DNA of 32,000 nt from Pyrobaculum aerophilum str. IM2 (GTDB taxonomy: Archaea; Thermoproteota; Thermoprotei; Thermoproteales; Thermoproteaceae): contig NC_003364.1 in assembly GCF_000007225.1 (NCBI RefSeq), positions 1 to 32,000 on the forward strand, read 5' to 3'. Of the stretch, positions 2,398-21,867 are shown in pieces. The position numbers and the translations under genes were made by a program. The notes beneath the pieces are model-generated. The model did no database searches. It saw only the letters and a program-made list of their open reading frames with translations, and was not told the origin of the DNA. Each line of letters begins with the position of its first letter. Within the stretch, counting starts at the first letter, position 1.

Positions 2398-2610
2398 GCT
2401 GGCTCACCGGCAAGAAATACGCAGAAAGCCATGCCCCTTATTCCCCCACCCCAGTTCCAATAAGCGTTACGAAGACTGTCGAAGCCCGTCGTTGTGCTTA
2501 TTATTGACATGACGGGTTATAATAACATATTTTAAAACAAACCAACTTGAACTACGCCTTTTTTCAGTGAAGTCGCTGTTACTAATGCCTCAAGCGCTTG
2601 TATGGAGAAG

Positions 2611-2624
2611 ATTATACTATATAG
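2611..2624 (+). promoter_or_regulatory. TATA-like box for the ATPase gene (leaderless spacing)
   Basis: attatactatatag lies about 16-29 nt upstream of ATG 2640. The same spacing recurs at many genes in this window. Confidence 0.45.
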
Positions 2625-2639
2625 GATTTTGGAAGTACA

Positions 2640-3797
2640 ATGAGTCTTTCTTTGAGCCTTAAGAACTTCGGCCCTGTAATCAACGGGAAGATAATTGTGA
2701 AACCAATGACAGTATTTATAGGACCTAATGCCTCAGGCAAGTCGTATACAGCCATGGCGTTATATGCGTTCTATTCCGGCCTTACGAGGTCATACGCCTT
2801 GCCAAGGCTGGCGTGTGCGGAATACTCTAGAAAAAAGAAATGGGAAGAGTATCTACAGTGGCTTCAGAAGAGAGCAGTGAACGTCGTGGAAAAAGAATTC
2901 AGGAGGGTGTTCGGACTAAATTTACAAGACCTTACTACTAGAGGTGCTAGCGGAGGTGAGCTCATCTTGACAGTTAAACATCGCAGAGAACGTGTGAAAT
3001 ATATTCTAAAGTGGCCTGATGTATCGCTTAAAATTGAGGGTTTAAAGTGCTCTAAACGCGGCGGAAACAACGTCTCTGCGCTGTTTGACTACCTACGCTC
3101 AAGAGTACTCTACTTGCCGGCTTCTAGAAGCGGCCTTGTTCAGACATACGGCTTTTATGTAGATCTAGTGATAAGAGTCGCAGAAGAGCTTCCAATTACT
3201 GGGGTAAGGCTTGTGCCTCTCCCCGGCATAGTAGGCGACTTCCTCCGCTGGCTTTTAGTGCCACCTATGGAGGAAACACAGCTTTACCAATTGTTTAGAG
3301 AAAAGCTTGGCGTGGATGTCGAGCGGAAGGAGAGAGGCGTTGTCGTAAGGTTTGACGGGCTGGAAATGGATATAAGGAATTCGCCGTCTGGTATCGCCGA
3401 ATTGGCGCCGCTTGGCTTAATGCTACGCCATGGCATAGTCAAGAAAAAATATATGATTATCATAGAGGAGCCAGAGGCCCACTTACACCCTGAAATGCAA
3501 GTTAAGACAATGGACTTGTTGGCAGAGCTGGCGGCAAGGGGGGTTAGGCTCATACTAACAACTCACAGCGATTTAATGTTAAATAGGCTGAGCAATATAG
3601 TGTTGGAGGGCAAAATATTAACTCGGAATAAAGTCGCTGTCTATTTGTTTAAGCGGGAGGGCAATGGCTATATTACGGAGAGAATAAAAATAGGTAAAGA
3701 AGGAATACCTGACGACGAATTTCTACGCGTGTACGACCAACTTTACAAAGAGTATATGAGCCTAATTTATGCATCACAAGTACGTGAAAGTGGATGA
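2640..3797 (+). CDS. ABC/SMC-like ATPase of the AAA_15/AAA_21 (OLD/RloA/AbiL-like) type, no nuclease domain
   Basis: 385 aa. Walker A is GPNASGKS (aa 28-35) and a signature-like SPSGIAELAPL lies at about aa 248-258. Walker B is YMIIIEEPEAHLHP (aa 271-284) and the H-loop is LTTHSD (aa 306-311). The gene is AT-rich with A/T-ending codons, unlike its neighbours. Confidence 0.8.
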   Translation: MSLSLSLKNFGPVINGKIIVKPMTVFIGPNASGKSYTAMALYAFYSGLTRSYALPRLACAEYSRKKKWEEYLQWLQKRAVNVVEKEFRRVFGLNLQDLTTRGASGGELILTVKHRRERVKYILKWPDVSLKIEGLKCSKRGGNNVSALFDYLRSRVLYLPASRSGLVQTYGFYVDLVIRVAEELPITGVRLVPLPGIVGDFLRWLLVPPMEETQLYQLFREKLGVDVERKERGVVVRFDGLEMDIRNSPSGIAELAPLGLMLRHGIVKKKYMIIIEEPEAHLHPEMQVKTMDLLAELAARGVRLILTTHSDLMLNRLSNIVLEGKILTRNKVAVYLFKREGNGYITERIKIGKEGIPDDEFLRVYDQLYKEYMSLIYASQVRESG

Positions 3798-4143
3798 TTA
3801 CACAATTAGACTGCCTGAAGGGTTGCGTCTAATTGACCTGGCGCTGTTAGATAGAGAGGAAAGCAGAGGAAAAAAGGCCGATTATAAGGTCACTTTTAAT
3901 AGCAAATGCGGCGAAATTATTTTAATTGAAGTCACAGGAGTGCCTGAAATACGGAATATCAGGAAAGTAGAAGCTCGTGGCGTAGTGGTTAAGATAATAC
4001 ATCACAGCGGCGGCGTGAGAACCCCCGTGTATCAATTAGCGCGCAAATATAAAATCGCACTATTAAATTGCAGTAGTAATAATTATATAGACTTAGAATT
4101 AGTATTTATAAATTATTATAAAGAACTATATAATAAATGTTAA
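3769..4143 (+). CDS. small basic protein of unknown function, translationally coupled to the ATPase
   Basis: 124-aa ORF from ATG 3769. Alternative GTG starts at 3784 and 3790 give a GTGGATGA overlap with the ATPase stop at 3795-3797. I recognise no motif, and the C-terminal third is encoded by extremely AT-rich DNA. Confidence 0.55.
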   Translation: MHHKYVKVDDYTIRLPEGLRLIDLALLDREESRGKKADYKVTFNSKCGEIILIEVTGVPEIRNIRKVEARGVVVKIIHHSGGVRTPVYQLARKYKIALLNCSSNNYIDLELVFINYYKELYNKC

Positions 4144-4315
4144 GTATACTTAAATAATTTTTAATTTGGAGAGATGATACTAAGCTTCTTATTAAAAGCA
4201 GATGCTATACTCATCCCCGCCGACGACTGCAAGTAGTCGGGAGGAATGCCCAGCATAGAGAAACTAAAACCGAGCCGTGGAGAAACTTATTGGCAACTTG
4301 AAGCGCCGCGAGGCT

Positions 4316-4456
4316 TTAAGCGCCGCTCTCTAGCTCTTCAATTATTTCGCGGAGTTCGTCTAAGGCCTCCTCAGCAGTTTTGCAATCGCCGTCTTCAACC
4401 GCGGCTTCTAAAAGATCTGCAACGTCTCTCAGCCTCTTGGCCAGTTCTCTGGACAT
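4316..4456 (-). CDS. possible 46-aa acidic helical micro-protein
   Basis: Not in the ORF track; hand translation gives MSRELAKRLRDVADLLEAAVEDGDCKTAEEALDELREIIEELESGA*. A TATAAAG box (4476-4482, minus strand) lies 20-26 nt upstream of its ATG, right after the queE stop. Confidence 0.35.
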   Translation of the reverse strand: MSRELAKRLRDVADLLEAAVEDGDCKTAEEALDELREIIEELESGA

Positions 4457-4482
4457 GGGAATTGAGAAACGGCGTCTTTATA

Positions 4483-5151
4483 TCACTTCCCCCTGGCGTT
4501 TCCCCACGCCATTATGTGCAGTCTAGGCGTTACTCTAAACCCCCCTCTCACGGCCGCGTCCCATATTCTGCGCAACGCCTCGCCGTGTTCCTCAGGGCTC
4601 TCCGCCATGGGCATTAAAAACACGCGGCCTCTCGGAATGCCGTAGGCGACCACAAACCGCTCTACCTCCTCCACATCATCGGCGTTGCTGACGACGAATT
4701 TAAACCACGCCTTAGGGCTTGAGGCGTAGAAGGGGCTGAAGGGGGCCTTGACCCCGGCGTTGGAGAGCTTCGGCGACACGTCGTAGAAATCCACACAGCG
4801 GTCTAACTCCGGAGTGGGCGGATACGCGCCGCTCGTCTCCACTTCCACAGAGCCCAGAGCTCTCAAGGCGCACGCCAGCTCCTCAAGGCCCCTCCTCTGC
4901 CATATTAACGGCTCTCCTCCCGTCACAACCACGTGTCCCACAACGCTAAGGGCTAAGGCCTTGGCCACTATCTCCTCAACGCCCATCTCAACGCCGGCGT
5001 TAAAATCCCAGGAGTACTTAGTGTCGCAGTATATACACCTAATGGGACACCCGGCCAGCCTCACAAACACCGCAGGCCTCCCCAAGTTAATCCCCTCCCC
5101 TTGGAGAGAGGCGAATATTTCTAAAACCCTCACGCGGGGTGTTGCCGACAT
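4483..5151 (-). CDS. queE: 7-carboxy-7-deazaguanine synthase (radical SAM)
   Basis: 222 aa. It has an N-terminal FASLQGEG, a radical-SAM cluster motif CPIRCIYCDT, and an overall QueE-like layout. Confidence 0.85.
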   Translation of the reverse strand: MSATPRVRVLEIFASLQGEGINLGRPAVFVRLAGCPIRCIYCDTKYSWDFNAGVEMGVEEIVAKALALSVVGHVVVTGGEPLIWQRRGLEELACALRALGSVEVETSGAYPPTPELDRCVDFYDVSPKLSNAGVKAPFSPFYASSPKAWFKFVVSNADDVEEVERFVVAYGIPRGRVFLMPMAESPEEHGEALRRIWDAAVRGGFRVTPRLHIMAWGNARGK

Positions 5152-9242: not shown

Positions 9243-10184
9243 ATGTCCAAAATAGGATATCTGATAATAATTATCGTCGCCATAGTCGCCGTAGCGGCGC
9301 TTCTGGCCATTCCCAGACCACAAGCGCCTATGACCCAAACGCCTATGGCCCAAGCCTCCACCTCAACGACAACGCCGCAGAAAATCGTGCTATACATGGC
9401 CACAACCACTAGCGTAAAAGACACCGGGCTTCTCGACGTGTTAATCCCAGATTTTGAGAAATGGGCGGCGTCCAGGGGGTATAACATAGAGGTTAGATAC
9501 ACGGCAGTGGGCACTGGGCAGGCCTTGGCAATGGCGGCAAGGGGGGATGTGGACGTGGTTATAGTCCACGCCCCGTCTTTAGAAAAACAGTATCTCGAAA
9601 ACGGGACTTTGAAGTGCAGAGACGTTATTGCGTACAACTTCTTTATAATTGTGGGGCCGAGGGACGACCCTGCCGGCGCCAAGAGCTTAACAGCAACGGA
9701 GGCGTTTAGGCGAATTGCAGAGGCCAAGGCCCCGTTTGTCTCCAGGGGGGACCGCTCCGGCACTCATTTAATGGAACTATCCCTTTGGAGAAGGGCAATT
9801 GGGAGAGAGCCTGATCCAAAAAACGACACTTGGTACATCTCGGCGGGGGCGGGCATGGGCCAGACCCTCCTCTTGGCCAATGAGAAAAGTGCCTATACTC
9901 TGTCAGACACGGGGACTTGGCTGAGGTATAGGGACAAGTTGCCGCAACTGGACGTGATAGTGCAGGCGGCTCCGGATTTAATAAATATCTACAGCTTTTC
10001 AATTGTTAAGCTTTCAAATGCCACTAGGCTCATGGCGCAGTACATGAAGACCAGGGGGCTGGAGGTGATTGGCAACTTAACCATCAACGGCGTTTCCCTC
10101 TTTACTCCTATAAACAAGGCTGATCCCAAAGCGATGGAGTGGATAAAAACAGCTATATTCGGCCCTAGCTGTGTTGAGCGATGA
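9243..10184 (+). CDS. tupA: tungstate ABC transporter substrate-binding protein
   Basis: An N-terminal TM/signal (YLIIIIVAIVAVAALLAI) is followed by TTTSVKDTGLLDVLIPDFE, VGTGQALAMAARGDVDVV and FVSRGDRSGTH..E..LW, motifs of the TupA family as I recall them. Confidence 0.8.
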   Translation: MSKIGYLIIIIVAIVAVAALLAIPRPQAPMTQTPMAQASTSTTTPQKIVLYMATTTSVKDTGLLDVLIPDFEKWAASRGYNIEVRYTAVGTGQALAMAARGDVDVVIVHAPSLEKQYLENGTLKCRDVIAYNFFIIVGPRDDPAGAKSLTATEAFRRIAEAKAPFVSRGDRSGTHLMELSLWRRAIGREPDPKNDTWYISAGAGMGQTLLLANEKSAYTLSDTGTWLRYRDKLPQLDVIVQAAPDLINIYSFSIVKLSNATRLMAQYMKTRGLEVIGNLTINGVSLFTPINKADPKAMEWIKTAIFGPSCVER

Positions 10185-10818
10185 GCTGATCGGCATTGTC
10201 CTAAACACGCTTTATGTGTCCACAATCCCTGTCTTTATCTCCGCGTTAGTGGGGACTCCAATAGCTCTGTTTTTACACCTAAGGGGCGGGAGGACGGCGC
10301 TTGTTTTTAAAATGGCCTTTAACGGCCTCATAGGCATGCCCACAGTCCTCCTGGGCCTCCTCTTATACCTTTTATTGAGCAGGTCGGGGCCTTTCGGCTG
10401 GCTGAACTTGCTCTATACGCTAGACGCAGTGGTTATCGGCCACGTTTTCTTAATCTTGCCCCTATACATAGCCTACGTACTAACGGCGTTAGAGGCGGTG
10501 GACCCCAGAATTAAAGAACTGGCGGCGATGTTTAACCTCTCCGCGCTTAAGAAAGCCTCGATATATTTCAGAGAGGCGGCTGGGGGTATAGCCGGCGCGG
10601 CCGCCGCGGCGTACGGAAGGGCAGTGGGAGAGCTGGGCTTAGCCCTTATGCTCGGGGGGGATATTCGGTATAGAACAAGGGTTTTAACCACTGCAATTGC
10701 CCACGAGACTATGCTGGGCAATTGGGACGCCGCAATTCAACTGGGCGTAGTGCTCTTGGCAATATCAGTGGCTATTAGCGCGGTTGTGACGGCGCTGGGA
10801 TTTCGGTATAGGGGATGA
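10171..10818 (+). CDS. tupB: tungstate ABC transporter permease
   Basis: 215-aa polytopic membrane protein with a MetI-like fold. It overlaps tupA by 14 nt and tupC by 4 nt. Confidence 0.8.
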   Translation: MLSDELIGIVLNTLYVSTIPVFISALVGTPIALFLHLRGGRTALVFKMAFNGLIGMPTVLLGLLLYLLLSRSGPFGWLNLLYTLDAVVIGHVFLILPLYIAYVLTALEAVDPRIKELAAMFNLSALKKASIYFREAAGGIAGAAAAAYGRAVGELGLALMLGGDIRYRTRVLTTAIAHETMLGNWDAAIQLGVVLLAISVAISAVVTALGFRYRG

Positions 10819-11417
10819 TCAAGGCCGTAGCCTTAGGCAAGAGGTACAACGACGTCTACGTTTTTAAAAACGTGTACATTGACTTGCCGCAGAGAGGCCT
10901 CGTGGCCTTAGTGGGCCCCAACGGCTCCGGCAAGACCACTTTGTTGAAAATATTCGCCATGTTGACAGAGCCTAGCGAGGGCGAGGTGTACATCCTCGGC
11001 GCGCCTTGGCGGGAGGCCCGGGTTAAACACAGAGGCCGCGTCTTATATGCCCACCAAGAGCCACTGGTCTATTCGGGCACTGTGGAACAGAATTTAATAT
11101 GCAACGACGACGACGTTTTAGAGGCGCTCGGCCTCAAAGGCTTAATGCGGCACAAGGCGAAGGGCTTGTCGGGCGGTTATAAAAAACTGCTCACTGTGGC
11201 CAGAGTGCTCGCGTGTAAGCCTCAAATAGCCCTGCTCGACGAGCCCACCGCCTATTTAGACCCCGGCAAAAGGCAAGGCCTCTTGGAGTATTTAAATGAG
11301 TACGCGAAAAAATCACTAGTCGTCTGGACAACCCACTACCCCCCAGAGGCCGACTCCTCGGAGCAGGTTTACGAGATTAGAGATGGGAATTTGAGGCTGC
11401 TCAAAAGCCGCATATGA
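10815..11417 (+). CDS. tupC: tungstate ABC transporter ATP-binding protein
   Basis: Walker A is GPNGSGKTT, the signature is LSGGYKK and Walker B is ALLDEP. It is a short 200-aa ABC ATPase. Confidence 0.8.
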   Translation: MIKAVALGKRYNDVYVFKNVYIDLPQRGLVALVGPNGSGKTTLLKIFAMLTEPSEGEVYILGAPWREARVKHRGRVLYAHQEPLVYSGTVEQNLICNDDDVLEALGLKGLMRHKAKGLSGGYKKLLTVARVLACKPQIALLDEPTAYLDPGKRQGLLEYLNEYAKKSLVVWTTHYPPEADSSEQVYEIRDGNLRLLKSRI

Positions 11418-21775: not shown

Positions 21776-21867
21776 TGGGGCCGCCGCCGGGATTTGAACC
21801 CGGGTCCTCCCGCGGCTCGCCGCAACGGGACCACAACCCGCCATCCTAACCGCTAGACTACGGCGGC
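21776..21867 (-). tRNA. tRNA, anticodon loop TTGTGGT (GTG = His) with a ~16-nt insertion after the anticodon stem; CCA encoded
   Basis: Hand fold: acceptor GCCGCCG/CGGCGGC, D-arm GTCT-AGCGGTTA-GGAT, anticodon stem GCGGG/CCCGT, T-arm CCGGG-TTCAAAT-CCCGG, discriminator C, then CCA (21778-21776). There are 21 nt between the anticodon stem and T-stem instead of about 5; they contain the hairpin GCGG-CGAG-CCGC. Confidence 0.8.

Follow-up and report, generated by a model that had tools for sequence, protein, structure and literature searches.

A Mobile Two-Gene Module of Pyrobaculum aerophilum as a Predicted Archaeal E-x-T Subfamily of PD-T4-4/PDC-M47-Type ABC-ATPase and Nuclease-Fold Systems

Introduction

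In E. coli, protection from T4 is conferred by PD-T4-4, a system of strain ECOR58 described as "ATPase, nuclease" (Vassallo et al. 2022, PMC9519451). The system has been assigned to the class PD-(D/E)xK plus P-loop and builds higher-order complexes (bioRxiv 10.1101/2025.07.10.664194). In vitro, EcPD-T4-4 cleaved none of the DNAs tried; RNA or tRNA has been put forward by its authors as a possible target. HEC-02 combines an ATP-binding cassette (ABC) ATPase with a NERD protein, and defence requires both genes (Payne et al., bioRxiv 10.1101/2024.01.29.577857). In Septu, PARIS, and the predicted Menshen complex, a dimer or oligomer of an ABC ATPase binds a separate effector, the activity or release of which is controlled by the nucleotide state; an inactive PIN domain has been proposed for NsnC of Menshen, an example of inactivated enzyme folds as binding modules (PMC12065111). 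In this paper, we compare with these systems a gene pair of the hyperthermophilic crenarchaeon Pyrobaculum aerophilum str. IM2, located at 2640–4143 (+) in a stretch of 32,000 nucleotides (nt) that corresponds to positions 1 to 32,000 of contig NC_003364.1 (hereafter, the window). The pair encodes an ATPase of 385 amino acids (aa), A, and a small partner of 124 aa, B. From its sequence relationships, it very probably belongs to an archaeal subfamily of the ABC-ATPase and nuclease-fold modules of the PD-T4-4/PDC-M47 type, in which Thr occupies the position of the nuclease Lys (the E-x-T subfamily).

In hyperthermophilic Crenarchaeota, antiviral defence is poorly charted beyond CRISPR-Cas, restriction-modification, and a few other systems. 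The placement proposed here would carry the PD-T4-4/PDC-M47 kind of ABC-ATPase plus nuclease system into the Archaea, with a B protein that escaped all four profile libraries tried. The architecture, an ABC ATPase with a small nuclease-fold partner, is already known, and it is the archaeal E-x-T variant of the active site that is new. Genome annotation gains a signature, D…E-x-T-G-x-P-E…H-H-x-G…C, always right behind an AAA_15/21 ATPase. The fixed change from Lys to Thr, together with an invariant neighbouring His, constitutes a natural experiment on the PD-(D/E)xK active site, and a thermostable ATPase of 385 aa with a partner of 124 aa could suit structural work on the control of effectors by ATPases.

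Comparison with Described Systems

PD-T4-4 and the window pair are both two-gene cassettes of about 2 kb on mobile elements, in which the gene for an AAA_15 ATPase is followed, adjacent and co-oriented, by that for a small protein of the PD-(D/E)xK class (the overlap is 8–29 nt in the window). PD-T4-4 differs in that the window ATPase is ~75–100 aa shorter and matches part of the PD-T4-4_A model, in that the window B protein is unmatched by the PD-T4-4_B models and has E-x-T, a G-x-P-E turn, and an invariant His, and in that the host of the window pair is a hyperthermophilic crenarchaeon. Judged by profile, the nearest named system appears to be PDC-M47, an untested PADLOC candidate: the window ATPase matches PDC-M47A, and those homologues of B that retain Asp, Glu, and Lys (hereafter, D-E-K partners) most often match PDC-M47B, whereas the window B protein has no direct match and carries Thr instead of Lys. 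A literature search found no paper on PDC-M47 and nothing relevant on PAE0006-8. HEC-02 is likewise a compact ABC ATPase with a partner of the PD-(D/E)xK superfamily, but the window B protein has no NERD match, and HEC-02B was touched by one of the 64 wider partners examined.

Septu, PARIS, and Menshen use the same type of ABC ATPase, and in them, as we propose for the window pair, the ATPase controls a separate small effector. However, PtuB of Septu is an HNH protein, whereas the window partner has no HNH match; AriB of PARIS is a Toprim/DUF4435 protein, whereas the window partner has no Toprim, DUF4435, or AriB match. The DUF262/ParB-like NsnA of Menshen is absent among the window neighbours, and NsnC consists of an inactive PIN domain plus a nuclease, whereas the window partner is a single domain of 124 aa without an NsnC match. 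In Gabija and OLD, a Toprim domain is fused to the ATPase, unlike in the window. Membership in Menshen, PARIS, Septu, or Gabija was rejected because their defining partners are absent.

Since no B-subunit model matches, we consider the pair to be an unmodelled variant and not a member of a named system; no named system model was matched by the pair as a whole. The original prediction for this locus, made from the letters of the DNA alone, had gone further and called the module a candidate for an undescribed one. The term "undescribed" has to be given up, because the wider ATPase family best matches PD-T4-4_A and its partners match PDC-M47B, PD-T4-4_B, PDC-M29B, and HEC-02B.

The ATPase

The ATPase gene spans 2640–3797 (+) and ends with a TGA stop codon at 3795–3797. 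In the Pfam search, its product matched AAA_15 (E = 4.9e-22; 79.5 bits against a gathering cut-off of 32.1) and AAA_21 (E = 1.7e-14; 55 bits against 27). The top PADLOC models were all ATPase subunits of defence systems, namely NsnB (1e-27), AriA (1.4e-25), PD-T4-4_A (2.4e-22), PDC-M47A (4.5e-20), and HEC-02A (7e-20). The best stretch of the PD-T4-4_A match joined residues 243–327 to model positions 300–384 of 460, and NsnB and AriA scored slightly higher; the HEC-02A match (model length 338) covered the C-terminal half and reached the end of the model, and the GajA and Old matches were confined to the Walker B region. NCBIfam gave no match near any curated cut-off for the ATPase.

An AlphaFold2 (AF2) model of the ATPase reached a predicted local distance difference test score (pLDDT) of 86 and a predicted template modelling score (pTM) of 0.87. 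In a Foldseek search, the model matched PtuA (8EEA; 2.7e-12), Rad50 (4e-12), OLD (5e-11), and SMC heads, all with a probability of 1.00, the retron-associated PtuA being among the best matches to solved structures. After the ABC core, the C-terminus forms one long helix (aa 358–384), and neither a fused Toprim, HNH, or other effector domain nor a coiled-coil insertion was found in the 385 aa. The protein is ~75–100 aa shorter than most of its relatives, owing to deletions after residues 64, 135, 143, and 326.

The motifs of the ATPase, all on the + strand, were compared among 23 homologues. Walker A, GPNASGKS (aa 28–35; 2721–2744), has invariant G28, N30, G33, and K34, and is followed by YLPASRSG (aa 158–165; 3111–3134), with invariant Y158, P160, R163, and G165. 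R163 probably occupies the Q-loop position; NsnB has Arg in place of Gln at the Q motif (PMC12065111). In the signature-like SPSGIAELAPL (aa 248–258; 3381–3413), S250 and E254 are invariant. The Walker B and D-loop region, YMIIIEEPEAHLHP (aa 271–284; 3450–3491), has a Walker B core that reads IIIEE and invariant E276, E277, P278, E279, H281, and H283, and in the H-loop, LTTHSD (aa 306–311; 3555–3572), T307, T308, H309, and S310 are invariant. The hallmarks of an ABC ATPase (Walker A, Walker B, a signature-like motif, and the H-loop His) are thus intact, and A is read here as a PD-T4-4_A/PtuA/AriA-type ABC ATPase with its catalytic site preserved. Pfam, PADLOC, and Foldseek agree with the earlier view of an OLD/PtuA/AriA-type ATPase without a fused effector. 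A housekeeping clade had been named as the way in which that view might fail; the ATPase, however, falls outside any such clade, and its best sequence matches are all to ATPases of defence systems.

The Small Partner Protein

The partner ORF (open reading frame) extends over 3769–4143 (+) and resembles PAE0008; its closest protein matches are PAE0008 of strain IM2 (99% identity) and a protein of "Pyrobaculum sp." (100%). No match was obtained in Pfam, PADLOC (E <= 1), or NCBIfam. A HAD-SF-IB match with an E-value of 0.069, the sole hit in the Pfam, PADLOC, NCBIfam, and PDB-sequence searches, was dismissed. Relatives were also hard to find: scanning the contigs of genomes with patterns of the small protein gave none, and a word-indexed homologue search gave two, or 10 clusters with a profile. 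Only when 1.84 billion representatives were searched exhaustively with an HMMER profile did the number rise to 41 cluster representatives with E <= 1e-3 (22 of them with E <= 1e-10). This family has so far been found in archaea only. Because of these 41 homologous representatives, and because the gene is coupled to an ATPase gene in all 10 loci described below, the small ORF is regarded as real, above what chance would give. It is therefore a conserved, translationally overlapped partner, as the original prediction had supposed, and the lack of conservation or of partnership that would have spoken against this was not seen. That the small protein contains neither HNH nor Toprim also held, as it has no Pfam or PADLOC match and no Cys/His HNH motif.

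Conservation was examined in 35 members of the family. Asp38 (3880–3882, +), which occupies the "PD" position where core strand 2 begins, is conserved in at least 90% and aligns with an Asp that is 98–100% conserved in the D-E-K partner families. E54-V-T56-G57-V-P59-E60 (3928–3948, +) has Thr at the Lys position, followed by the G-x-P-E turn; E54 is invariant, and T56 and P59, like D63 further on, are conserved in at least 90%. His78-His79 (4000–4005, +) closes the next parallel strand at its C-terminal end, H78 being invariant, and the equally invariant Cys101 (4069–4071, +) aligns with a 75%-conserved Cys of a D-E-K family. Most members read I-E-[D/E]-T-G-x-P-E; in other words, they have one extra acidic residue. 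The full (D/E)-x-K of core strand 3 is thus lacking in the small protein, with E54 invariant and Lys replaced by Thr. Thr stands at the E-x-T position in all 8 close members; among the 35 extended members, its share is at least 90%. This conservation across the family indicates that Lys was not lost recently and that Thr in its place is fixed in the family.

The small protein was likewise modelled with AF2 (pLDDT 78, pTM 0.71), and the order of the strands in this model is compatible with a restriction-endonuclease-like fold. D38 starts one strand, E54 ends the next, and H78/H79 end the following parallel strand; by the standard topology of this fold, D38, E54, and H78/H79 would meet at one edge of the sheet. 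Compared with solved structures, the model gave weak matches to the nuclease domains of Mrr, MspJI, and Cap4.

Relationship to D-E-K Partners of Distant ATPases

A profile of the ATPase family led to 79 loci in bacterial and archaeal genomes. Their ATPases best match PD-T4-4_A, several of them over the full length and with E-values down to 4e-46 (L016, full length); P0010, a relative within the clade described below, matches it as well (6e-40). In ~70 of the 79 distant loci, an ORF of 130–210 aa overlaps or abuts the 3' end of the ATPase gene. Three families, with 44, 12, and 5 members, take in 61 of these partners. Counted by alignment column, which replaced a regular-expression motif scan that proved too crude, Asp and Glu are each 98–100% conserved in the three families, and Lys at E+2 is found in 80%, 100%, and 100%, respectively. 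Among 64 wider partners, PADLOC matches were obtained to PDC-M47B (15), PD-T4-4_B (5), PDC-M29B (4), and HEC-02B (1). A PDB profile search with the same 64 proteins gave no match.

A plain hidden Markov model (HMM) of the small-protein family gave no significant match to these partners, and only profile–profile comparison linked the two. In hhalign, an alignment of eight sequences of the window family matched the 44-member family at 77–82% (P = 2.4e-6 to 1.1e-5; score 34–37), as compared with control scores of 13.4 for the reversed profile and 14.3 for the best of 30 column shuffles. With an alignment of 38 sequences, the values rose to 96.9–97.4% (P = 1.6e-10 to 3.8e-11; score 60–66). The register of the alignment places D38 on a conserved C-D, I-E54-V-T56 on I-E-L-K, and C101 on a conserved Cys. 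The H78/H79 strand falls on P-V-L-V-[H/Y]-G, where 13 of the 28 D-E-K members with a residue at this position have His. Because the profiles align in register with the D-E-K partners, ADYKV...GEIILIEVTG represents the homologous nuclease core (ADYKVTF...IEVTG, 3877–3939). The original prediction had singled out this motif, noted correctly that the Lys is missing (Thr stands there), and set it aside; it is this last step that cannot be kept, and the effector that could not be placed is now placed as a homologue of the D-E-K partners. Taken together, these relationships make it very likely that the small protein is a divergent protein of the PD-(D/E)xK fold belonging to an E-x-T subfamily.

A Toprim reading, in which an E-G-like turn and His-His in place of DxD would be the landmarks, was also considered and rejected in favour of PD-(D/E)xK, for which both the order of the strands in the model and the significant homology to D-E-K partners speak.

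Two further features of the D-E-K partners should be mentioned. The partner ORFs of L050, L060, L064, and L074, from Rhizobiaceae, Dehalococcoidia, and Caldilineaceae metagenome-assembled genomes (MAGs), are bacterial D-E-K members that read P-I-E-L-T, an independent change from Lys to Thr. In addition, the 44-member family (L013–L090) has four Cys residues conserved in 75–93% (an N-terminal C...C, the C of C-D, and a C-terminal C-G), which suggests a structural metal site. Of these, the family of the window protein retains only C47 (75% of eight close members) and the invariant C101.

Linkage of the Two Genes

Ten loci with a gene of the B family were available: the window, L001, L002, L003/L009, L005, L012, L165, L168, L170, and L006a, a disrupted copy. 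In 10/10, the B gene is immediately preceded by a co-oriented AAA_15/21 ATPase gene that overlaps or abuts it, as in the window. The linkage of A and B is obligatory, and the question of whether the pair stays together in other archaea, raised when the module was first proposed, is answered in its favour. A neighbour-joining tree of 84 ATPases unites the nine that have E-x-T partners and that of L006a in one clade of ten leaves. Since the ATPases with E-x-T partners form a single clade, the two genes have co-diverged. From these sequence relationships, the E-x-T pair appears to be an archaeal subclade, comprising Pyrobaculum and its relatives and Bathyarchaeota, of a superfamily that includes PD-T4-4 and PDC-M47.

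On L006, an ATPase of 438 aa (P0010; 7201–8200, +), 33% identical to the window ATPase, looked as if it had no partner. Its partner is a gene of the B family (HMM 6.5e-36) that has in-frame stop codons and a frameshift exactly at EDTGVPE, so that it is either a pseudogene or a MAG assembly error. The same PaREP1-rich contig carries, at 9357–11061 (−), a more divergent ATPase of 436 aa with an overlapping ORF of 133 aa that reads FEVK and weakly matches PDC-M62B (1.4e-3). BLASTP found no match between the window small protein and this FEVK protein, and the pair was kept out of the argument.

Insertion and Genomic Neighbourhoods

Alignment of the spacers with those of related contigs shows that the whole module lies in an inserted accessory segment of ~1.9 kb (2401–4320), the edges of which are at ~2400/2401 and ~4316–4328. 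In five Pyrobaculum-like contigs (L092–L096; dipeptidase 68–76% identical), the radical-SAM gene is separated from the M19 dipeptidase gene by 159–261 bp that contain neither the ATPase nor the small ORF, as compared with 2085 bp in the window. The insertion has a GC content of 0.43 against 0.56 and 0.54 in its flanks. It holds no third gene, the window neighbours being the M19 dipeptidase gene, an ORF of 46 aa, and the radical-SAM gene. A search of the edges for terminal inverted or direct repeats and for a target-site duplication revealed only short A/T-rich chance matches, and no integrase, transposase, or tRNA gene accompanies the insertion.

Elsewhere, the pair has other neighbours. It stands between glycerate-kinase-like genes and a tricorn protease gene in L009, among PaREP1 genes in L165, and next to two ATPase_2 genes in L170; in L012 (1–7937) it adjoins genes for Csx1, Csx1, Cas6, and a PDDEXK_10 protein, and in L168 (7598–8497) a Cas6 gene. 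No nuclease gene is found nearby at most of the loci examined. Such a patchy distribution, independent of the site, would be expected of accessory defence cargo. The module is mobile and horizontally acquired. The defence-like character proposed for it at the outset agrees with the low-GC insertion, with its absence from five related genomes, and with the Cas6/Csx1 genes beside two other loci.

On the side of the radical-SAM gene, the insertion is bordered by the 46-aa ORF (MSRELAKRLRDVADLLEAAVEDGDCKTAEEALDELREIIEELESGA; 4316–4456, −), the DNA of which is also conserved in L092, L093, and L095. In these three contigs, the stop codon of the ORF overlaps the start codon of the dipeptidase gene, from which the insertion has split it in the window.

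Proposed Function and Alternative Explanations

We propose that the pair works as a mobile antiviral module with an ATPase-regulated nuclease-fold effector, and consider this overall explanation, including the defence role, to be reasonably probable, less so than the classification itself. By analogy with Septu, PARIS, Menshen, and PD-T4-4, a dimer or higher oligomer of the ATPase would hold B in an inactive complex. A cue derived from a virus would then shift the ATP-binding or hydrolysis state of the ATPase, and B, once released or activated, would cut nucleic acid: DNA, or possibly RNA or tRNA. The cleavage would use D38, E54, T56, and H78, together with the extra acidic residue that most members have. 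Complex formation, nuclease activity, trigger, and antiviral role are all proposed here from the related systems, and that the variant E-x-T site is an active nuclease we put at slightly under an even chance. A bolder version, which we consider rather doubtful, is that the E-x-T subfamily, with its G-x-P-E turn and invariant His, is more than a PD-T4-4_B that has drifted and represents a distinct catalytic solution, either a His-assisted site with another substrate (tRNA or RNA) or a non-hydrolytic switch, in an archaea-specific defence system. If true, a defence system would have been missed entirely by PADLOC, Pfam, and NCBIfam.

The alternative that survives best, although we hold it to be unlikely, is that the nuclease fold of B has lost its catalytic activity and acts for the ATPase only as a sensor or adaptor binding nucleic acid, like the inactive PIN of NsnC in Menshen, while the effector is found elsewhere, for example, a host or CRISPR-associated nuclease, or DNA clamping driven by the ATPase. 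The replacement of Lys by Thr throughout the subfamily, the Cas6/Csx1 genes adjoining two of the loci, and the inactivity of EcPD-T4-4 on DNA in vitro can all be read in this way, and inactivated enzyme folds have precedents as binding modules (PMC12065111). On the contrary, invariant E54 and H78, D38 and T56 conserved in at least 90%, and a sequence that mostly reads IE[DE]TG would be unusual for a dead site, and the nearby nuclease gene that could act as effector is missing at most loci. Moreover, the third position of active PD-(D/E)xK enzymes is not always Lys; it is Glu in BamHI and Gln in BglII.

An antiviral role could also be questioned altogether, if the pair were a selfish addiction module of the toxin–antitoxin kind or served the maintenance of mobile-element cargo. 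It is indeed a small, mobile, low-GC cassette of two overlapping genes, Pfam describes AAA_21 as a "putative AbiEii toxin, Type IV TA system", and the partner gene is disrupted in one copy. However, neither an integrase or transposase nor terminal repeats accompany the insertion, PD-T4-4 and HEC-02, its nearest relatives among tested systems, are antiphage and have not been reported as addiction modules, and the ATPase has the sensor-type ABC architecture of defence systems; we find this explanation improbable. Housekeeping DNA repair by a Rad50/RecF-like ATPase and a small nuclease is the least credible alternative and highly improbable: the ATPase model does resemble Rad50 and SMC heads, but the empty site in five closely related genomes argues strongly against it, as do the atypical GC content, the rare and patchy family (41 representatives among 1.8 billion), the length of 385 aa with no coiled-coil insertion, and best sequence matches that are all to defence-system ATPases.

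Gene Layout and Neighbouring Genes

Re-reading of the sequence confirmed both ORFs and all the motif coordinates of the original prediction. The 3' end of the ATPase gene overlaps the start of the small ORF within 3769–3797 (+). Three start codons are candidates, ATG 3769, GTG 3784, and GTG 3790, with overlaps of 29, 14, and 8 nt, respectively, and every one of them lies inside the final ATPase codons. As the conservation of the small protein starts at ~Val6/Lys7 in the family alignment, ATG 3769 or GTG 3784 is the likely start. Homologous gene pairs also overlap or abut. A TATA-like, A/T-rich element, TTATACTATATAGG (2612–2625, +), was read by eye ~20–25 nt 5' of the ATPase ATG and is a possible archaeal promoter giving a leaderless transcript; a sigma-70 promoter scan was also made, the model of which is not applicable to archaea.

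The nearest match to the ATPase is P0003 (99%), the source of which is solely a Logan assembly. An ATPase named by NCBI for P. aerophilum IM2 is absent from the top matches, whereas the neighbouring PAE0008 does appear, and the ATPase may be differently annotated or disrupted in the IM2 record. The ORF at 4246–4617 (+), of 123 aa, is antisense to the conserved 46-aa ORF and the radical-SAM gene, and is probably not a gene.

The dipeptidase gene and an ORF of 318 aa enclose a gene of the PaREP1 family (954–1427, −; Pfam 1.2e-26). It is present in L092, and tblastn found no match in L093, L094, or L095; the genes that flank its position are only ~13–50 bp apart in L093 and L094. The PaREP1 gene thus represents a second variable insertion adjoining the module. 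Finally, the window carries a tRNA-His(GTG) gene at 21776–21867 (−). Although none of the 71 positions of the Rfam tRNA model is left unmatched, the gene takes up ~89–92 nt, which points to an insertion of ~18–20 nt, probably an intron.

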